From sequence record NC_050154.1: a DNA stretch of 64,000 nucleotides, one strand, 5' to 3'. Position 1 is the stretch's first letter; every line of letters begins with the position of its first letter. A model generated the notes under the pieces. The model was not told where the DNA came from and searched no databases. It worked only from the letters and a program-made list of their open reading frames with translations. This document shows, piece by piece, positions 5,004 through 64,000 of the stretch. The stretch is from Escherichia phage D6. The translations under genes were made by a program, and so were the position numbers.

Positions 5004-5597
5004 TCGGTACCAGTGGTGAAAAGATCCCCCTGTTGAGTACGGCTAACACATGGAGTGCGCGCCAGACTTTCAATGGCGGGATCACCGGGGCGCTGATAGG
5101 GAACGCCGACACCGCGACGAAATTGAAAACAGCCATAAACATTAATGGCGTCAGGTTCGATGGTTCGGCTGACATTAATATCAATACTCTGGTATCGCGT
5201 GGTCGCGTAACGGCTCTGGGGGCGAATGCACAGGGGACATCCGGGATTCAGCTGTATGAGGCATACAACAATGGCTATCCTTCCCCCTATGGCAATGTGC
5301 TTCACCTTAAAGGTGCCACCGCTGCTGGCGAAGGTGAATTATTCATTGGCTGGAGTGTCTCGAGCGGTGACCATGCGCCCGTACATATCCGTTCGCGGCG
5401 TGATATTGATTCTGCCAACTGGTCTGAATGGGCACAGGTCTATACGTCAAAAGATTCAGTTCCCGGCGTTAATGCCAAAGGGAATCAGGATACCTCTGGT
5501 AATGCGGCTACAGCGACCAAATTGCAGACGGCGTGTACTATCAACGGTGTCTCGTTTGATGGTTCTAAAAACATTGAGCTAACGGCGGAAGATTTAA
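4997..5597. repeat. ~0.6 kb inverted repeat, left copy
   Basis: Encodes GTSGEKIPLLSTANTWSARQTFNGG...NIELTAEDLNL, near-identical to an internal segment of the 941-aa tail fiber on the opposite strand. Confidence 0.8.
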
Positions 5598-6553
5598 ATC
5601 TTGAGCAAACCGTAGAATTAGCCGCAGGAGCATTGCAGAAAAACCAGAACGGTGCAGATATTCCGAATAAAGATAAATTCATACAAAACACAGGGGCCTG
5701 TCGTGCATTTAGCGGTCAGACTGATATCGATGGTTCACAAGGTGAATGGTCGACAGTTGCATTTATCTCGTGGCTGGAGAATAACGGAGCTTTCCGACAT
5801 CCATACTGGATGTGTAAAGGGTCATGGTCCTATGCCAGAAACAGGGTTATTACGGATACCGGTTGTGGAAATATCTGCCTTGCCGGAGCCGTGATTGAGG
5901 TTATGGGAACCCGCGGCGCAATGACCATACGCGTTACCACGCCGAGCACGTCCAGCGGTGGCGGAATCACTAACGCTCAATTCACTTATATTAATCATGG
6001 TGATGCTTACGCTCCTGGCTGGCGACGAGACTACAACACGAAAAACCAGCAGCCTGCATTTGCTTTAGGGCAAACAGGACGCAGGGTCGCAAATGATAAA
6101 GCTGTTGGCTGGAACTGGAATAGCGGCGTTTATGATGCAGATATCAGTGGCGCATCGACATTAATCCTCCACTTTAATATGAATGCGGGGAGTTGCCCTG
6201 CTGTACAGTTCCGCGTGAATTACAGAAATGGCGGTATCTTTTATCGTTCAGCGCGTGATGGTTATGGCTTTGAAGCTAACTGGTCAGAGTTTTACACCAC
6301 AACACGCAAACCCTCTGCGGGAGATGTTGGTGCATATACGCAGGCAGAATGTAACTCAAGGTTTATTACAGGTATTCGCCTTGGCGGTCTGTCATCTGTT
6401 CAGACATGGAATGGTCCTGGCTGGTCTGACAGGTCAGGTTATGTCGTTACTGGTTCAGTTAACGGAAACCGTGATGAATTAATTGATACAACTCAGGCAA
6501 GGCCAATTCAGTATTGCATTAATGGAACGTGGTATAACGCGGGGAGTATTTAA
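5033..6553 (+). CDS. alternative tail-fiber variable C-terminal cassette (Sv'-type), silent in this orientation
   Basis: N-terminal ~190 aa equal the shared repeat, C-terminus diverges; no RBS or promoter of its own. Confidence 0.75.
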   Translation: MSTANTWSARQTFNGGITGALIGNADTATKLKTAININGVRFDGSADININTLVSRGRVTALGANAQGTSGIQLYEAYNNGYPSPYGNVLHLKGATAAGEGELFIGWSVSSGDHAPVHIRSRRDIDSANWSEWAQVYTSKDSVPGVNAKGNQDTSGNAATATKLQTACTINGVSFDGSKNIELTAEDLNLEQTVELAAGALQKNQNGADIPNKDKFIQNTGACRAFSGQTDIDGSQGEWSTVAFISWLENNGAFRHPYWMCKGSWSYARNRVITDTGCGNICLAGAVIEVMGTRGAMTIRVTTPSTSSGGGITNAQFTYINHGDAYAPGWRRDYNTKNQQPAFALGQTGRRVANDKAVGWNWNSGVYDADISGASTLILHFNMNAGSCPAVQFRVNYRNGGIFYRSARDGYGFEANWSEFYTTTRKPSAGDVGAYTQAECNSRFITGIRLGGLSSVQTWNGPGWSDRSGYVVTGSVNGNRDELIDTTQARPIQYCINGTWYNAGSI

Positions 6554-56426: not shown

Positions 56427-57509
56427 ATGACCGTTTTAACCGACAAAGAACTGATTAAAGAAATCAAAGAGCGCATAGGCAGTCTGGACGTTCGAGACAA
56501 TATTGAGCGCCGTGCTTATGAAATTGCGCTGGCATCGCTGGAAGCAGAGCCTGTTGGTGAGTTTTATGAATACAAACCGGGTGACTGGTATCAGCGTTCG
56601 GTCGGGGATAAAGCACCAAAGTGGGTGCCGTTATATGCTACTCCGCCAGTTCGGGAATTGCAGGCTGATGTCGCGCAAGCAATTGAAAATCTCAAGCAGA
56701 AGTTAGTGGAATGCAATCGCTATAACTACTGCGCAGATGCCGTTAAAGGTGTTGAGGATGCCAGCCGCGTCTTGGCACTCCAAAATCAAAATATGTCAGC
56801 GCCGATAACGCCGGAGGCCATTGAAAACGCAATTGAATACATCCGCAGTATCGCTTTTCACATCGATGAAGACGATTACCACGGCAAACATATTGCGTAT
56901 TTCATGCGACAAGCATTGGCCTGGCTGGAAGGGCATTCATGCAGCAACGACAGACTGGGTAAAGCCGATAATCAACCAGTACGCGGCAACCAGGCTGCCG
57001 AATCCAATCGCGGTAATGAGTGGACCGGCAATCCTGATATTGATAACGCCATCATCATGCTCGATCGCATAGATACGCTGGAAAATTGCGATGATGACCG
57101 TATTGAGGCTGTTAAGGCCGTTTTGCGTAGACTGGCTGGCAACTATCCGGATATTCCGGATAGTTCGGTGCCAGCGCCAGGAAAGGGCGTCACCGGTGAA
57201 CGTATCCGAATTAAGCCGCATGTTTATCGCGAACTGGTTAACCGTCTCCACGATACAGCGATCAAGAGTGCGGGCACCCAGCAATTACGAGAAAGAATTA
57301 GCCGTGTTTTGGGCGACGTTATTACACCAGATCATCATAAACAAGCCGAGAAAAGTGGCTTGGAAAGGTGTCACCTTGAGGCGGCATTAAACATTAAGCC
57401 GGGGCATACGCTTGGCATTATTGATGCACTATTGGTTCATAAGATGGCCAGGGCTTTATTGCCGCTGGTGGCTGAAAAGCATGAGGCGGACCATGCCAAC
57501 GAAAGCTGA
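56427..57509 (+). CDS. hypothetical protein, mosaic with the 49682 ORF
   Basis: 360 aa; shares the HVYRELVNRLHD...GTQQLRERI module. Confidence 0.55.
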   Translation: MTVLTDKELIKEIKERIGSLDVRDNIERRAYEIALASLEAEPVGEFYEYKPGDWYQRSVGDKAPKWVPLYATPPVRELQADVAQAIENLKQKLVECNRYNYCADAVKGVEDASRVLALQNQNMSAPITPEAIENAIEYIRSIAFHIDEDDYHGKHIAYFMRQALAWLEGHSCSNDRLGKADNQPVRGNQAAESNRGNEWTGNPDIDNAIIMLDRIDTLENCDDDRIEAVKAVLRRLAGNYPDIPDSSVPAPGKGVTGERIRIKPHVYRELVNRLHDTAIKSAGTQQLRERISRVLGDVITPDHHKQAEKSGLERCHLEAALNIKPGHTLGIIDALLVHKMARALLPLVAEKHEADHANES

Positions 57510-57645
57510 ATTACAGGTGCGCGTAGATGAGCTTGAAAAAGAGAACGCGAGCCTCAAAAAAATGCTGTCGCGGGATTATCAGGCAAATTATTGCCAGAAG
57601 AACTGCCACCAGCAGATATACCTGATCGAGTGTCCTGGTGGATGA
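57493..57645 (+). CDS. hypothetical small protein
   Basis: Start chosen at MPTKAELQVRVDELEKENASLKK. Confidence 0.4.
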   Translation: MPTKAELQVRVDELEKENASLKKMLSRDYQANYCQKNCHQQIYLIECPGG

Positions 57646-57751
57646 AGTATTTCCGTGCACCGTGGGAGGCGTTTTGGTGCTACGACCATCGCAGATGGTG
57701 TGATGAACTTGATAGCAGTTTTCCCTACTTTGCGGAAGGGAACACCTGCCC

Positions 57752-58102
57752 TCAATGCAGGGGATAGCATTTGACGAAATCGATCACCCTATCCTGAACT
57801 TCAGAAAGAAGGTCTTTTTCACGCGCCAGGACGTCAGGATATTGACGTTCTGGCCTTACTAGATGCCGGAGCTTCCCATTAAGCAGAATGGCCTCAGAAA
57901 ACACTTTTACGCTGTGCTTTATCCCCTCTGTTTCACTTTTCAGCGTCAAAATAAAGCGCAATTGCTTATTAGCCTGATTCAGATTCAATACACGAATTTG
58001 CAGTTCGTCTATGCTGTTTCGCAATGGGATTGATGCCACCACACTGGTGCAGTCTCTGATTGTCTGAATTGAACGGCTAACATTGAGAACGTTATTGTGC
58101 AT
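57752..58102 (-). CDS. hypothetical protein
   Basis: 116-aa ORF, divergent from the hot/humD promoter region. Confidence 0.45.
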   Translation of the reverse strand: MHNNVLNVSRSIQTIRDCTSVVASIPLRNSIDELQIRVLNLNQANKQLRFILTLKSETEGIKHSVKVFSEAILLNGKLRHLVRPERQYPDVLAREKDLLSEVQDRVIDFVKCYPLH

Positions 58103-58134: not shown

Positions 58135-58281
58135 GTGTCAGATCGAAATATAGCAGCTAAAAGCCAGGAAGAGCGAGACAAGGTGAACGTAGACCTTGCC
58201 GCCAGCGGCGTTGCTTACAAACCCCGCTTTCACAAACTATGCCTTTTCAATGTATACTGTATGAATAAACAGTATCATTGA
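58135..58281 (+). pseudogene. hot: truncated hot (homolog of Pol III theta, HolE) remnant
   Basis: GTG after GGAGG; ERDKVNVDLAASGVAYKPRF aligns with HolE DKVNVDLAAAGVAFKERY, then homology stops and the frame ends inside the LexA box. Confidence 0.5.
58255..58274. promoter_or_regulatory. LexA box (SOS operator) upstream of humD
   Basis: TACTGTATGAATAAACAGTA, perfect CTGT-N8-ACAG. Confidence 0.8.
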
Positions 58282-58292
58282 GGTAAAACGCT

Positions 58293-58682
58293 ATGGGCTT
58301 CCCTTCTCCTGCGGCGGATTATGTTGAAAGCCGAATTTCTCTTGATCAGCAACTAATTAGACATCCATCAGCAACCTACTTCATGCGGGCAGCTGATAGC
58401 CATCACCGTGAGGGAATATTGCAGGGTGCTTTGCTGGTGGTTGATTCCTCACTTACTCCGGTTGATGGCTCACTGCTTATATGCGCTATGGAGGGGGAAT
58501 ATCGCGTAAAAAGATACCGGAAGTATCCGCGCCAGCACCTGGAGGATTTAAGCACCGGGAAGAAAGAGGCGTTACCAGTAGATGACGATGGTTACACGGG
58601 TAGTAATGCTGTTTTTGGTGTGATCACCCACATTATCAATGACGCCAGGGGCGGTGAATTTGATGATAGTCCTGCTATATGA
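58293..58682 (+). CDS. humD: UmuD'-like S24 peptidase-fold protein
   Basis: 129 aa; SATYFMRAADSHHREGI...GALLVVDSS; lacks the UmuD N-terminal arm. Confidence 0.85.
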   Translation: MGFPSPAADYVESRISLDQQLIRHPSATYFMRAADSHHREGILQGALLVVDSSLTPVDGSLLICAMEGEYRVKRYRKYPRQHLEDLSTGKKEALPVDDDGYTGSNAVFGVITHIINDARGGEFDDSPAI

Positions 58683-58816
58683 TTTGTTTTCAGAGAAACC
58701 ATAGAGAGGCATGACTGGATCTATATCGCCCTGGCCATTTAAATGATTCCTCCCATTAGACGCGGTTACTCACTTGAAGATAAGATGAGGTTATAATTCT
58801 CTTTTTAGGTACGCGA

Positions 58817-59239
58817 ATGAGTTCGTCTGCTTTTGTCACTGTTGTCACTGGAGTAAGCGTTTTTGTCCTAGGTCGACTCATCATCAAGGGGGTTGAGTCT
58901 TACATTTCATTCAAGGAACAGTTGGGGGAAATATCGCATCTGTTATTGTCTAACCAAGCAAAGCTATCGAATCCCCGCTCTGACTTAAAACAAGAAATCA
59001 TCCATGATTTGAAAGATGCGGCAGCACAGTTACGGGTGAAGTACGAACTATTACCTTTCTATATCAAAATGTTACACATCGGTTTTCGCCTTGTTCCATC
59101 AGAAACTGAAATTCGTAAAGCGGCGCAAGAATTGAATCTGATAGCCTCGATACATGACGGTAAAACCGGAGAGCTGCCATATGAGCACATAGCCAAGATT
59201 GGATTACTGCTCAGAATTCCAACCACTTATTCTGCTTAA
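58817..59239 (+). CDS. AT-rich hypothetical membrane-anchored protein between humD and phd
   Basis: 140 aa, N-terminal TM FVTVVTGVSVFVLGRLII; lower GC than flanks. Confidence 0.55.
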   Translation: MSSSAFVTVVTGVSVFVLGRLIIKGVESYISFKEQLGEISHLLLSNQAKLSNPRSDLKQEIIHDLKDAAAQLRVKYELLPFYIKMLHIGFRLVPSETEIRKAAQELNLIASIHDGKTGELPYEHIAKIGLLLRIPTTYSA

Positions 59240-59347
59240 TCCCAGCAATTGCAAGACTGCATCTCGAGGATTTAAGGCACCAAGAAGTGGTATTCAGCAT
59301 CATTAAAACCTATAATTGCGTACACATAACGAGCACACGAGGTGTTT

Positions 59348-59569
59348 ATGCAATCCATTAACTTCCGTACCGCGCGCGGCAACCTTTCTGAAGTGCTCAA
59401 CAATGTTGAAGCCGGGGAAGAGGTTGAAATCACCCGCAGAGGCCGTGAGCCAGCAGTAATTGTTAGCAAGGCTACTTTTGAAGCCTACAAAAAAGCGGCG
59501 CTGGATGCCGAATTTGCATCCCTGTTTGACACCCTGGACTCCACCAACAAGGAACTGGTTAACCGATAA
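59348..59569 (+). CDS. phd: Phd antitoxin
   Basis: [73 protein letters not shown], matches P1 Phd as recalled. Confidence 0.97.
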
Positions 59570-59949
59570 TGAGGCATATATCACCGGAAGAACTTATTGC
59601 GCTTCATGATGCGAATATAAGCCGCTACGGTGGCCTGCCGGGAATGTCAGATCCGGGTAGGGCAGAGGCCATTATCGGGAGAGTTCAGGCCAGAGTTGCC
59701 TACGAAGAGATCAGCGACCTTTTCGAAGTCTCCGCCACCTACCTGGTGGCTACAGCGAGAGGGCATATATTCAATGATGCCAATAAGCGTACCGCGCTAA
59801 ACAGTGCGCTGCTATTTCTACGCCGTAACGGGGTTCAGGTATTTGATTCACCTGAACTGGCAGACCTTACTGTAGGCGCTGCGACTGGCGAGATATCTGT
59901 ATCTTCTGTCGCCGACACGTTACGTAGATTGTATGGTTCTGCGGAGTAG
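59569..59949 (+). CDS. doc: Doc toxin (Fic-fold kinase)
   Basis: [11 protein letters not shown] Fic-type motif; full-length match to P1 Doc as recalled. Confidence 0.97.
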
Positions 59950-59953
59950 ATTA

Positions 59954-60151
59954 ATGGCACGTAAATACAACAAGTTGTCCCGTGAAGCGTTAAAGATGCT
60001 TCTTGATGGCGTGAGTCGCCGCGAGGTAAAGCAATACCTGGTTGGTAAGCAAATTGGTGCCAGGACCGCTATTGCTGTGTTATGCCGTCAGGAAATGGTT
60101 GTGCTTAAACAGAGAATGCTTGGTAGCAGACAAAGTGCTTCCAGTATTTGA
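59954..60151 (+). CDS. hypothetical small protein downstream of doc
   Basis: Start chosen at MARKYNKL. Confidence 0.4.
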   Translation: MARKYNKLSREALKMLLDGVSRREVKQYLVGKQIGARTAIAVLCRQEMVVLKQRMLGSRQSASSI

Positions 60152-60183: not shown

Positions 60184-60960
60184 TTATTCCACCTCTTCTG
60201 CCGCTGTATCATTGGACTGTTCTTCTTTGGCCCGTTCTGCAATCGCCGCACGGCATTTCGCCCTGGCTGTAGCGATTGCTTCTGCTCGCACATCGTCTGG
60301 AATCGTTGACGTGATATACATATCCAGTTCTTCGGCACGGAATACTGTTTGGTCCAGATATTCGCGTAGCATCCAGGTAAATTCGAAATCACACGCGATA
60401 ATCTCTGCGCTACCTTCTGCACCATTTGGGAAATGAATAAATGCCTGTTTAGCCAAACCGATAACACGACATGCGGTTGCCAAAACAGCGACAACCAGGT
60501 TTACATTTTCACACGCTACGGGCTGATTAACGCCGGAGATTACTCCATTTAACTGTCGGTTATATGGAAGGTAGTTTGAGATGCGTTCTACGCGCCATGT
60601 GCCAGTCAGGCTGCCATTCTTAAAGATAATTGGTGTAACGGATAGCCCAAGCTCGCGTATAAGTCGTTGCGCTATAGCAGGATCATTAAACATGTCTAAT
60701 GCTACACATTCGAAAGACTGTGCAAGGGTAAACAGTTCTTCCAGAGAGTAGTCTTTGCCCCTGGCGGTGATGTAACGATGAACGCCGCTTTCTGCATCGC
60801 TCCATATAGCTACGCCATGCTCTTCATTCAGTTCTTCATTAAAGCCGAGATATGTCATGATAGTGCGTTCAATCGTGTCAAACGGCAGTGACATGTCGGC
60901 GTTAACAGCCACCAGCAGGCCATTACGCAAGCGGTATTGAATTGCTTTAGTATTTTCCAC
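60184..60960 (-). CDS. hypothetical protein
   Basis: 258-aa ORF. Confidence 0.55.
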   Translation of the reverse strand: MENTKAIQYRLRNGLLVAVNADMSLPFDTIERTIMTYLGFNEELNEEHGVAIWSDAESGVHRYITARGKDYSLEELFTLAQSFECVALDMFNDPAIAQRLIRELGLSVTPIIFKNGSLTGTWRVERISNYLPYNRQLNGVISGVNQPVACENVNLVVAVLATACRVIGLAKQAFIHFPNGAEGSAEIIACDFEFTWMLREYLDQTVFRAEELDMYITSTIPDDVRAEAIATARAKCRAAIAERAKEEQSNDTAAEEVE

Positions 60961-60966
60961 GTTAAA

Positions 60967-61407
60967 TCACTCCACCACAAACCAGTCACATGCCAGTAAG
61001 TCGCCTACAGAAGGAACCCACGGAACAACTACACCTTGTGCATTTTTTAAGGCGAAATAAGCACCATACGGAACGAGGTCGCCGGGGAAATATCCCTTAA
61101 TGGCTTCCATTCGTGCCGGGTACTGTCCTTCAGGAACCAGCCAGCAGAATTGGTTTTCGCCGTTCCACCCGCGTCGAGCAACTTTCTTGCCATCCTTCAG
61201 CCACATCAGCGCGTCAGAAAAGTCGGCTGCTTCAAGGTCGATTTCTTCTTGCTGGGTGGTGATGCCACCAGCAGAAATAGTTACGCTCCCGGTAAGATTA
61301 ATCATCACGCCGTTGTCATCCGTAATGATGACCGTGGTTCCATTTTTTTTGTGAGCTTTGTATTTTGGAAGGAACTTAAAAAGCTCTTTCGTTGCCATGT
61401 TATTCAT
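60967..61407 (-). CDS. DUF2829-like protein (Tad2-type fold candidate) with N-terminal extension
   Basis: FSDALMWLKDGKKVARRGWNGENQFCWL in the C-terminal ~85 aa. Confidence 0.55.
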   Translation of the reverse strand: MNNMATKELFKFLPKYKAHKKNGTTVIITDDNGVMINLTGSVTISAGGITTQQEEIDLEAADFSDALMWLKDGKKVARRGWNGENQFCWLVPEGQYPARMEAIKGYFPGDLVPYGAYFALKNAQGVVVPWVPSVGDLLACDWFVVE

Positions 61408-61421
61408 AGTCTTTTCTCTGC

Positions 61422-61916
61422 TTATAACTTTTCGTACTGAAGCGGTGAACGCTTAATTTCAAAGTGGCCTTCCGATGTGCTACCAAAGCCACCATCACCA
61501 CGTTCCGTTTCGTTGAGTTCCTCAACCTCGACTAGTGAGACTTGTTCAACACGCTCAAAAATTCCTTGCATGACAGCCATTCCAGGCTTGAGACAAACGC
61601 CTTCCCCGCCGGGATCAGTAATCAGTTTTGCCATGATTTCGCCGCGATAATCGGAGTCGATAATTCCTACGCAGTTAGCCAGGCGAGTATGTTTTTTGCA
61701 GCCCAATCCGGATCGCGGATAGAGTTTCAGACACCAGCCGGGCGGGATCTCCATAGCCAATCCGGTGTACACCCACCAGCTTGAGGAAATTGCACCATTG
61801 CTATCGACACATGGTTTTATTTCAACAGCCTCAAAATCCATCGCCGCCGATCCGGAGGTGGCATAAGCTGGAAGTTTTGCTGCCGGATGTAGGCGTTTCA
61901 CTTTTACGTAAATCAT
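61422..61916 (-). CDS. dut: dUTP diphosphatase
   Basis: GIIDSDYRGE and RGDGGFGSTS dUTPase motifs. Confidence 0.92.
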   Translation of the reverse strand: MIYVKVKRLHPAAKLPAYATSGSAAMDFEAVEIKPCVDSNGAISSSWWVYTGLAMEIPPGWCLKLYPRSGLGCKKHTRLANCVGIIDSDYRGEIMAKLITDPGGEGVCLKPGMAVMQGIFERVEQVSLVEVEELNETERGDGGFGSTSEGHFEIKRSPLQYEKL

Positions 61917-62389
61917 TGTTTTTTAGCTCTCTGCGTGAAGGTGTAAACCCGACGTTTGATATGTGGAACGGTTGGAACAGGAAGACAGGAACTTTCAATA
62001 ACTCCTTGCTCCTCCAGCGATCGCACCGCCCGCAAGAACTGCGACGTGTCGCCGCCAAACTGGCGGGCATAGGTGCTGCCGTTATGAAGTATTTGAGCTA
62101 TTACCCGAGCTTTTGTCTGGCTGTCACGATATGCGAATAGCCGCACGGCCTCTTCTGGCGCAATCGATAACTGATAGCCTTTACCGGCACGGTGTCGAAT
62201 GAATCCATGCGCCAGTAGGTTTTTGAGTTCGTTACGAGTGCGAACAGATCCGTAATCCAGGAAGTGTGGATTGATAACGACTGGCTTAAACCATTCCGTA
62301 GGTGCTTTAGCTAATAGAGCTAACAGCTTCCCGGACAATCCTGGATAGGAAGACGGGTAACAATTCAGAGATGGGTAATAAGTTTTCAC
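61913..62389 (-). CDS. hypothetical protein
   Basis: 158-aa ORF coupled to dut. Confidence 0.5.
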   Translation of the reverse strand: MKTYYPSLNCYPSSYPGLSGKLLALLAKAPTEWFKPVVINPHFLDYGSVRTRNELKNLLAHGFIRHRAGKGYQLSIAPEEAVRLFAYRDSQTKARVIAQILHNGSTYARQFGGDTSQFLRAVRSLEEQGVIESSCLPVPTVPHIKRRVYTFTQRAKKQ

Positions 62390-62742
62390 CGACGCCCCCT
62401 TGCCGGATATCGACCTGCATTAGTATCCGGTGCAATAAAGCCGGTAGTGGGGCGAGTGAAAGCGAGATTAATCTTCTCGACCATAGTGCGATAATTTTCC
62501 TGATAGTGGGCCAGGAGTTTTTCGGCGGCAATGATGGTTACTTTCCGGACGTAGCTTTCTGCTTCCTCCAGATTTCGCCAGTTTTTTTCGAGGGTAAACA
62601 CAGGGACGGCCTCAAGCCCGGTCATGATGCCGAATACAACGACAGCATGACTGTTCTTAACACCAGCGGCGAAGGTTACGGTGTAACCATCCACCGTGAA
62701 GCGTCTTGATTCCGTGATTTGACTCTGCAAAGCACCCTCCAA
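62386..62742 (-). CDS. hypothetical protein
   Basis: 118-aa ORF, first gene after the operator-like motif. Confidence 0.5.
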   Translation of the reverse strand: MEGALQSQITESRRFTVDGYTVTFAAGVKNSHAVVVFGIMTGLEAVPVFTLEKNWRNLEEAESYVRKVTIIAAEKLLAHYQENYRTMVEKINLAFTRPTTGFIAPDTNAGRYPARGRR

Positions 62743-62786
62743 AATAGGCGAGGGTACTTTACAGCAAAGATATCAATCTAAAAAGA

Positions 62787-62807
62787 TGTGTTAGAAATTT
62801 AATTTAT
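62787..62807. promoter_or_regulatory. candidate C1-type operator, overlapping the recombinase stop
   Basis: TGTGTTAGAAATTTAATTTAT. Confidence 0.5.
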
Positions 62808-63832
62808 GAATCCATCAAGCGGCTATTAGCCCCCACAGACACACCGCCACGGCGCAGATACCGCATAAGTGTTTCCGGTTTCTTCCAGGTTCCTTCCTGC
62901 ATAATCTCCACCATAGACACCTGCTTTTCAGCCATATCGATAGCGGCCCCGACACGAGCACTATGCCCGGTCCACGTCCGGTATCTCCCTTTGTTTGGCG
63001 TGGCATCCCTTTTATTCAGCAACACCCAGGCGTCGCTGAATATTTTCTCCATTGCAGGTGCAGTAAGGGGCGTTGTCGTAATCCTGGCCTTATTGCTACG
63101 GTGTATCGGCGGGAACAGCACCGCGTCAGGATGTTCACGAAGCCCGGAAACATCCAGCCAGTCATTCAGCACAGCAGTAGTGCGACGGGAAAGCACCTTA
63201 TCAAGCCCGGCGGCGGTCGTTATTGTCTTCGTGTGTGAAATATGTAGCGTGACAGTGTCACCTGTTTGGTCCAGATCTCCTACACGAATACGCGAGATTT
63301 CCGACATACGCATCAGCGTATTGTATGCAACAAAGAGAAAAGCCCGGTTGCGCAGGTCCACCAGCCGTTCTGACCTGGACAACAGGACGTCGAGCAGTTT
63401 CAGGTCGTCCCATCGCAGCGGTATAGCCTGGCCTGTTCGTTCGCCTTTTTCCGTTGCCGCTTCGCGCCGGATACGCCGCATAGCCAGAGAAACACTTTTA
63501 TCATCCGAAAGTGGCGGAAGGCCACAATGAGAAAGCAGCATGTTAAGCATGGCGTAGTGCTTATCAATGGTGGTCGAAGCCAGATCGGCATCATGCAACT
63601 GAAGAAAATACTCGCGGGCCATTTCTGGTGAGATCGGAAACCAGGCAAGCTGGCGAGCGTGACACCAGCGCGCCCAGGAATGAAACACCAACCGGAGGTC
63701 GCGCAGAGTATTCGGCGCATAAGCACCCTGATCATTCATGAACCGCATAAAGTTTTCTGCGGCTTCCTGGTACTCTTTGCCAATGTTGCGCAGAAAACCA
63801 CCGGAACTGCCAGAGATAATTAATTCACTCAT
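62804..63832 (-). CDS. Cre-family tyrosine recombinase (Dre-like)
   Basis: 342 aa colinear with P1 Cre at reduced identity: HSWARWCHARQLAWFP, SVSLAMRRIRRE, GHSARVGAAIDMA; rox-like half-site follows. Confidence 0.9.
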   Translation of the reverse strand: MSELIISGSSGGFLRNIGKEYQEAAENFMRFMNDQGAYAPNTLRDLRLVFHSWARWCHARQLAWFPISPEMAREYFLQLHDADLASTTIDKHYAMLNMLLSHCGLPPLSDDKSVSLAMRRIRREAATEKGERTGQAIPLRWDDLKLLDVLLSRSERLVDLRNRAFLFVAYNTLMRMSEISRIRVGDLDQTGDTVTLHISHTKTITTAAGLDKVLSRRTTAVLNDWLDVSGLREHPDAVLFPPIHRSNKARITTTPLTAPAMEKIFSDAWVLLNKRDATPNKGRYRTWTGHSARVGAAIDMAEKQVSMVEIMQEGTWKKPETLMRYLRRGGVSVGANSRLMDS

Positions 63833-63984
63833 GAAACCATTTCACCTCTATATACAGATGACGCTACGCGAAAAATATAAAAATGACAGGGTAGCTATAA
63901 GTTAATTTTCAAAATACAAGCCTTTGATTGGAGGTACGTATTTTCAGTGATGTCAATACTGTTCATCTACACATGATTATAGCC

Positions 63985-64000
63985 TAACTTTAAATAATGC
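63985..64000. other. partial rox-type recombination site (first 16 bp, cut by window end)
   Basis: TAACTTTAAATAATGC equals the first 16 bp of rox (TAACTTTAAATAATGCCAATTATTTAAAGTTA) as I recall it. Confidence 0.6.

Follow-up and report, generated by a model that had tools for sequence, protein, structure and literature searches.

A moron-type accessory gene for a predicted membrane-anchored four-helix bundle in the humD-downstream slot of a D6-like phage-plasmid

The 64,000-nucleotide stretch of Escherichia phage D6 analysed here (NC_050154.1; hereafter the window) carries a 140-codon gene, ORF140 (positions 58817–59239, plus strand; ATG start, TAA stop), between humD and the phd–doc addiction operon. 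We find that ORF140 is a real and conserved gene that is present or absent among close relatives of the window element, and that its product, a member of the family phrog_7512, is predicted to cross the membrane once and to end in a four-helix bundle. ORF140 is very probably a mobile accessory membrane-protein gene, and its reading as a moron is supported. From architecture and location we infer, at a probability of roughly one in three, that the protein serves in exclusion of, or defence against, incoming phages or mobile DNA.

The gene is bounded on its left by humD (58293–58682, +), which encodes a UmuD′-like S24 peptidase (Peptidase_S24, 9e-9), and on its right by the genes for the antitoxin Phd (59348–59569, +; PhdYeFM, 3e-13) and the toxin Doc (59569–59949, +; Fic/DOC, 5e-9). 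The spacers measure 134 bp upstream, to humD, and 108 bp downstream, to phd, and a Shine–Dalgarno-like TAGGT (58806–58810) lies 7 nt 5′ of the ORF140 start. A first-pass annotation of the window had described a 140-residue open reading frame (ORF) with its own upstream spacer at this place; its coordinates proved exact, domain matches identify both flanks as it had named them, and the spacer contains a conserved promoter-like site.

In the window 665 bp separate the humD stop from the phd start, as against 72 bp in P1 and in the D6-like plasmids CP123682.1 and CP148392.1. In a megablast comparison of 58200–60000 with 50,697 phage records, humD and phd–doc of P1, P7, SJ46, RCS47 and JL22 match at about 96%, always in two pieces that skip ORF140, in accord with the first-pass statement that humD and phd–doc are neighbours in P1-type genomes. 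CP123682.1 and CP148392.1 are 98–99.9% identical to the window over the adjacent 3.8 kb (60184–64000), yet they have a plain humD–phd–doc–pdcA arrangement without ORF140. Comparing the humD–phd interval across relatives thus shows that P1-type phages lack ORF140, as do near-identical D6-like plasmids; the gene is neither conserved at this position in all relatives nor a known structural or regulatory gene.

Among the plasmids in PLSDB, the segment 58683–59341 is present in 34, at an identity of at least 99% in 30 of them; all 34 carriers are about 75–169 kb, non-mobilizable and from E. coli or Salmonella. Two seemingly diverged copies, on pSa1423-90k and pSa1423-160k (L021 and L022; 89–93% identity), were discarded, as the many frameshifting indels that account for the difference mark low-quality assemblies. 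The P1-type juxtaposition of humD and phd appears in about 17 of 60 evenly spaced entries from 1437 PLSDB matches, which extrapolates to roughly 400 plasmids. Because 115 PLSDB plasmids cover at least 80% of the D6-type segment 60184–64000, the ORF140 cassette is in the minority even within the D6-like lineage.

The same slot holds other genes elsewhere. In other D6-like plasmids humD is followed by ORF139, a 139-residue paralogue (P0008) that is 70% identical to the ORF140 protein, and then by a gene of either 200 residues (5718–6320, −, in the related D6-like plasmid L032) or 266 residues (5519–6319, −, in the related D6-like plasmid L034); phd–doc is missing. In pTB423 the slot is occupied by a 364-residue gene on the opposite strand (L031, 2890–3984, −), again with no phd–doc. 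The 364-, 200- and 266-residue proteins have no Pfam or PADLOC match. Judged by these arrangements, the slot 3′ of humD is a mosaic hot spot of recombination, for which at least four different contents are seen. It lies at the edge of the ‘variable region 8’ of P1-like phage-plasmids (PMC9603915).

Alignments to P1 and CP123682.1 delimit a variable segment of about 640 bp, the cassette (58673–59310, +), which replaces about 45 bp of the P1-type humD–phd spacer. Its left junction falls in the humD stop region (~58673), and the last ~10–60 nt of the window humD diverge from P1-type alleles. Its right junction lies between ~59271 and 59310, just 5′ of the phd −10 box. At least 22 plasmids have the cassette at 100% identity, with humD alleles that diverge by as much as 5%. 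In its humD stop region, upstream spacer and promoter-like motif the window agrees with the humD–ORF139 arrangement. This sharing, together with the paralogue of 70% identity found directly 3′ of humD in plasmids without phd–doc, makes the direction of insertion ambiguous: on the sequences compared, insertion of ORF140 between humD and phd, and joining of phd–doc–pdcA 3′ of a humD–ORF block, fit equally well. The first-pass description of a gene inserted between humD and phd–doc therefore holds as regards accessory presence and absence, whereas the insertion itself is one of two equally good histories.

Pairwise ratios of non-synonymous to synonymous substitution rates (dN/dS) between ORF140 and homologues of 66–74% identity from three other replicon types are 0.15–0.29. 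The exact protein is encoded on at least 1000 public contigs and is named ‘hypothetical protein’ in every source. ORF140 is a real gene under purifying selection, beyond a chance ORF. Its G+C content, 42.1%, compares with a mean of 46.5% for the window (s.d. 4.2%, 423-bp windows), and so lies at the 14th percentile, about one s.d. low. The lower G+C content that had drawn attention to the gene is real but unremarkable; ‘AT-rich’ overstated it, and the argument from composition is weak.

The ORF140 protein has one strongly hydrophobic stretch. Its 19-residue Kyte–Doolittle mean reaches 2.19 at residues 5–23 (codons 58829–58885, +; AFVTVVTGVSVFVLGRLII), which is also the family median, and never exceeds 0.5 in the rest of the protein, in agreement with the single N-terminal transmembrane (TM) helix noted at first pass. 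Family members have on average 2.9 residues before the TM helix, with 0.08 lysines or arginines per sequence, as against 2.9 lysines or arginines in the 17 residues past it. This charge bias predicts an N-out/C-in topology with the bundle in the cytoplasm.

AlphaFold2 modelling, which the first-pass annotation had proposed as a check, gives a mean predicted local distance difference test score (pLDDT) of 92 and a predicted template modelling score of 0.83 with a 71-sequence alignment (pLDDT 83 with a 14-sequence alignment). The model has helices at residues 2–45, 59–77, 96–112 and 121–132, and the long first helix includes the TM segment and runs straight into the bundle. ORF140 is accordingly modelled as a bitopic inner-membrane protein, predicted to consist of one N-terminal TM helix and a compact cytoplasmic four-helix bundle. 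Near-invariant positions in the family are G12, V13, Q20, P28, L44, P94, N107 and L132, and the TM helix has a conserved small-residue face (T8, G12 and G19). There is no His/Asp/Cys/Ser constellation among the near-invariant positions, which makes an enzymatic role unlikely and a binding or oligomerizing role likelier. The window allele is one residue short beside a conserved E-P motif past the TM helix.

Although the ORF140 protein has no Pfam or NCBIfam match at E ≤ 1, it matches phrog_7512 (PHROGs v4, unknown function) from end to end (residues 1–140 to positions 1–141 of the 141-position profile, E 1.2e-77), as do 71 of 71 sampled relatives; the first-pass statement that no domain is recognizable extends to PADLOC as well. 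No Pfam or NCBIfam family is common to more than one of the 71 relatives. An exhaustive profile search against 1.84 billion cluster representatives (50%-identity clusters) recovered 1004 clusters at E ≤ 1e-3 and 226 at E ≤ 1e-10, nearly all of them 135–155 residues long and matching from end to end. At closer range, 18 relatives from Enterobacteriaceae came out of a word-indexed search. At the DNA level, 333 of 5426 complete E. coli genomes (~6%) have a detectable family member, with 336 of 340 places on plasmids. Twenty IMG/VR viral contigs bear a family member, and a GTDB scan with a 10-sequence alignment gave six loci, including ones on a Citrobacter plasmid and in Arsukibacterium, Marinobacter and Bowmanella. 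As far as these searches reach, the family is unnamed and uncharacterized despite its breadth, and extends past phages to plasmids and chromosomes. In one member (P0014; 231 residues, on short Logan contigs), the C-terminal third is replaced by a tail of about 110 residues resembling a group II intron maturase, which may reflect insertion of an intron or another element into the family gene.

The settings of the relatives are diverse. P0005 (74% identity) is encoded on phage-plasmids of about 48 kb with an IncFII RepA, ParA and tail-fibre genes; its gene is divergent from a 90-residue helix–turn–helix gene and close to a Gp49/HTH_37 (HigBA-like) toxin–antitoxin pair. P0009 (66%), the commonest E. 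coli variant, lies in the cargo region of sitABCD/iutA ColV-type virulence plasmids, with IS1 on its flanks. A dqlB type I toxin gene is found near a family member on a virulence plasmid, and HicAB near a lambdoid prophage member. In lambdoid prophages of Atlantibacter and its relatives, the P0017 gene (43%) sits between replication genes (lambda P-like/DnaB-like) and ninB at five of five places, and is antisense to the surrounding operon at all five. A Shewanella member adjoins a prophage cI repressor gene, with PIN and pentapeptide-repeat genes also present.

Lone members occur in a Litchfieldella island with a transposase and beside an integrase fragment in an Oceanospirillales genome. Litchfieldella anticariensis has two copies at least 90% identical to each other (P0179 and P0244) on separate contigs (one of them L026), one near a DDE transposase, which suggests carriage on a repeated mobile element. 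Across more than ten contexts compared, there is no recurrent neighbour gene and the family gene always stands alone. The scanned neighbours gave no Pfam or PADLOC identity except for a Tad2-like protein, described below, and two marginal PADLOC matches of no weight.

Upstream of ORF140 lies a candidate sigma-70 promoter, TAGACG-N18-TAAGAT (58757–58786, +), that agrees with the consensus at 8 of 12 positions. An alignment shows that the motif TAGAC(A/G/T)-N17-18-TA(A/G)GAT is kept in the window, in an IncFII-type phage-plasmid (L004), in a virulence plasmid (L010) and in the D6-like plasmid L032; a promoter scanner calls the homologous sites of L004 (TAGACA-18-TAAGAT) and L010 (TAGACA-17-TAGGAT) at 9 of 12. 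A second, perfect TATAAT at 58792–58797 has no usable −35 element. A P1 late promoter of the Lpa type was considered here and rejected: its −22-like element does not stand at the right distance from the perfect TATAAT. Because of this spacing, and because the motif is also conserved on an F-type plasmid without Lpa, the sigma-70 reading is preferred. No match to a P1 C1 operator consensus was found anywhere in the window at three mismatches or fewer.

Further upstream, humD has a promoter-like site, TTCACA-18-TATACT (58229–58258, +), that is overlapped by a LexA box (58257–58272, +; CTGTATGAATAAACAG), the only CTGT-N8-ACAG in the 64-kb window; the annotation of P1 has a LexA site there too. 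A terminator scan of the window found no terminator-like site between humD and ORF140 or between 59240 and phd. These signals suggest that ORF140 has its own constitutive promoter and may also receive SOS-induced read-through from humD. Hairpin terminators lie 3′ of the ORF140 homologues in L004, L010 and L016. Because a terminator is absent here, unlike in those other contexts, the ORF140 transcript probably runs on into phd–doc.

At the right junction the phd promoter retains its −10 box, TATAAT (59311–59316, +), and the P1 −35 region is replaced. The Phd/Doc operator is also retained (59317–59341, +), with two T→C changes relative to P1, one in each palindromic half-site: TGCGTACACA...GAGCACAC here as against TGTGTACACA...GAGTACAC in P1, phi456 and CP123682.1. 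The two changes co-occur with the cassette. Phd is identical to that of P1 and Doc differs at one position (S49 here, T49 in P1).

The term moron is used in the sense of Juhala and Hendrix, for an independent transcription unit added between genes that are neighbours in related phages. Like morons, ORF140 stands as an addition between two genes that adjoin each other in relatives, its family has spread horizontally among unrelated phage and plasmid backbones, and it has a promoter-like site of its own, to which homologues elsewhere add their own terminator. Unlike a typical moron, it has no terminator in the window and its composition is barely distinct. The first-pass suggestion of a moron or defence insertion thus finds backing in its moron half, from presence–absence polymorphism and the promoter-like site, but its defence half has no direct support, as the PADLOC results below indicate. 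Morons and other accessory genes in hot spots of phage-plasmids are well known; this particular family is uncharacterized.

ORF140 is very probably a stand-alone, horizontally exchanged moron-type cassette in the hot spot 3′ of humD. We propose that its own sigma-70 promoter drives transcription while the element is a plasmid prophage, perhaps with SOS read-through from humD. The N terminus, of about three residues, would be periplasmic, and the TM helix, with its small-residue face and a position 20 that is near-invariantly Q in the family, would continue without a linker into the cytoplasmic bundle. On this reading its likeliest task lies on the cytoplasmic side of the inner membrane, where protein–protein contacts would benefit the carrier cell or element. 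We favour exclusion of incoming phages or other mobile DNA, which could come about by a block to genome entry, or by a membrane-acting form of abortive infection in which TM helices oligomerize. We count in favour of this proposal the contexts typical of prophage-expressed cargo, namely the antisense slot of lambdoid prophages, the cI-adjacent position in Shewanella, the position beside a helix–turn–helix gene and a HigBA-like pair on IncFII-type phage-plasmids and the cargo region of virulence plasmids.

Known exclusion proteins offer an analogy. HK97 gp15 is a moron-encoded inner-membrane superinfection-exclusion protein that blocks genome entry (PMC3594210). The ORF140 product likewise appears small, anchored in the inner membrane and devoid of an enzymatic motif, which is a matter of analogy and not of homology, and at 140 residues with a folded cytoplasmic bundle it differs from the 62-residue gp15. 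Homology to HK97 gp15/YebO was rejected, as hhalign of the 71-sequence family profile returned a probability of 0.9% over 17 aligned columns. Proteins of the Sie2009 type reportedly face outwards, and P22 SieA is polytopic. As with lactococcal Sie2009 and P22 SieA, ORF140 would be a prophage-borne single gene for a membrane-anchored protein in a slot expressed during lysogeny, a likeness that draws in part on PMC10883804. It is unlike the Sie2009 type in that its domain is predicted to be cytoplasmic, a comparison made by description and not by sequence.

Several observations weigh against an exclusion or defence role. The ORF140 protein has no match in PADLOC-DB 2.0.0 (2023) at E ≤ 1, the 71 family members give scattered single PADLOC matches at E ≥ 0.0045, and their neighbours in the scanned contexts give the two marginal ones mentioned above. 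A tblastn search of the protein against the 50,697 phage genomes found no match. Full-text literature searches found no paper naming the protein accession or phrog_7512, nor one that describes the gene under P1 hot-spot or defence descriptions. The distant chromosomal members, in marine Gammaproteobacteria, lie among ordinary metabolic and uncharacterized genes and not in recognizable defence islands. The window promoter site, at 8 of 12, is below the scanner threshold and is left uncalled. The window allele has R20 where 94% of the 71 members have Q, and S28 where 97% have P (codons 58874–58876 and 58898–58900).

The structural neighbours of the model are likewise generic helical bundles, the best of them 2huj, of unknown function. 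These Lin2004/YppE-type four-helix bundles (2huj and 2hfi) are soluble Firmicutes proteins without a TM helix, unlike ORF140, and because designed helical bundles and cytochrome b562 score similarly, the match reflects a generic fold and holds no functional information. A sequence-profile search of the PDB with ORF140 gave one noise match only. With no link to catalogued defence, ordinary chromosomal contexts and abundance on virulence plasmids, the defence reading is plausible and no stronger than that. The broader proposition, that more than 1000 clusters make up a widespread stand-alone family of membrane-anchored four-helix-bundle exclusion or abortive-infection proteins, missing from current defence catalogues and carried by temperate phages, phage-plasmids and virulence plasmids against competing phages or mobile DNA, is slightly less probable than the exclusion role itself.

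Some of the same observations would fit a protein that serves the host. ORF140 might be a membrane-tethered cytoplasmic adaptor that binds a host inner-membrane protein or a component of division or the envelope and so raises carrier fitness, for example in stress tolerance or colonization. The commonest E. coli variant does sit beside sitABCD and iutA in the cargo of ColV-type virulence plasmids, distant members are lone chromosomal genes among housekeeping genes of marine Gammaproteobacteria, no association with known defence genes is seen, and small bitopic adaptor proteins have this architecture. Against this, in Enterobacteriaceae the gene is almost confined to mobile elements (plasmids account for 336 of 340 places), and the family fills moron slots of the classical kind in temperate phages. 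No host partner suggests itself, and neither Pfam nor NCBIfam reveals similarity to a named envelope family. We regard a role in host physiology as conceivable but rather unlikely.

A role in plasmid maintenance is suggested by the junction itself, where ORF140 lies directly 5′ of phd–doc with no terminator between, the phd −35 region is replaced and two operator changes accompany the cassette; other members have HigBA-like, HicAB or dqlB type I toxin genes nearby. ORF140 could then encode a membrane-acting, toxin-like protein or modulator tied to toxin–antitoxin modules, or its promoter could feed unregulated transcription into phd–doc and so alter the strength of addiction. The distributions of ORF140 and phd–doc are nonetheless independent: phd–doc occurs without ORF140 in the P1-type phages and in the roughly 400 PLSDB plasmids noted above, and family members occur without phd–doc in most contexts, among them IncFII-type phage-plasmids, virulence plasmids, lambdoid and Shewanella prophages, D6-like plasmids with ORF139 and chromosomal islands, observations on which we rejected ORF140 as a third component of phd–doc. 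The neighbouring toxin–antitoxin families also vary with context, as expected of shared accessory regions and not of a functional unit, and a 140-residue protein with a folded bundle is unlike type I membrane toxins. An addiction role is improbable.

We consider a helper function in the lytic cycle, whether as an antiholin-like regulator of lysis timing or as a membrane factor for DNA ejection, entry or assembly, to be a poor candidate as well. It would draw on the layout of one N-terminal TM helix plus a helical domain, which antiholins and i-spanins share, on membership in a PHROG and on the partly late expression of the region according to P1 annotation (LPhot 5′ of hot). ORF140, however, is outside any lysis cassette, and its relatives are antisense to early and late operons in lambdoid prophages and also occur on non-phage virulence plasmids and in chromosomes; the gene is dispensable in P1, P7 and the near-identical D6-like plasmids. 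An Rz-like i-spanin was specifically rejected: the charge bias predicts an N-out/C-in orientation opposite to that of Rz, the flanking genes are humD and phd, the model shows a compact bundle and not an extended coiled coil, and no open frame with a lipobox of the o-spanin type is embedded in the +1 or +2 frame over ORF140. As for a spurious or decaying reading frame without function, the universal ‘hypothetical protein’ label and the departure of the window allele from two near-invariant positions would agree with it. It is effectively refuted by the conservation of the gene, seen in the dN/dS values, the more than 1000 homologous clusters of the same length and the occurrence of the protein on at least 1000 contigs, and by a model supported by co-evolution, with pLDDT rising from 83 to 92 as the alignment deepens.

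Positions 61609–64000, at the right end of the window, are 100% identical to a GenBank fragment of phage D6 with dre, rox and dut (AY753669.1), and only 10–15% of 40000–64000 matches P1-type phages at the megablast level. Because of this identity at the right end and the scant similarity to P1-type phages, the window is, on sequence comparison, assigned to a D6-like (Dre/rox) phage-plasmid related to P1 and not to P1 proper.

The region left of humD (56427–58102) is unlike P1. It has a 360-residue ORF (56427–57509, +) without a significant Pfam match, and a 116-residue ORF (57752–58102, −) that stands where P1 carries the 190-residue lxr, consistent with ‘variable region 8’. To the right of phd–doc, a 146-residue protein (60967–61407, −) has a Thoeris anti-defence 2-like domain (PF11195 Tad2-like/DUF2829, E 7.7e-23); its gene is flanked by a conserved 258-residue gene (60184–60960, −) and the dUTPase gene dut (61422–61916, −). 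Because a Tad2-like domain protein is encoded there, this D6-type stretch near dut may hold counter-defence cargo.

If ORF140 does turn out to be a minor physiology gene, it would simply be another conserved hypothetical. If the protein protects against other phages or plasmids, it would be a compact single-gene addition to the defence repertoire, and one already frequent on P1/D6-like phage-plasmids and ColV-type virulence plasmids of clinical relevance. The humD-downstream slot would then be worth mining as a cargo hot spot, its 364-, 266- and 200-residue occupants being equally uncharacterized. Whatever its function, ORF140 cleanly illustrates how a single accessory gene travels between phage-plasmids, integrative prophages and conjugative-type plasmids, and the loss of its terminator in the window may rewire transcription of the phd–doc addiction operon.

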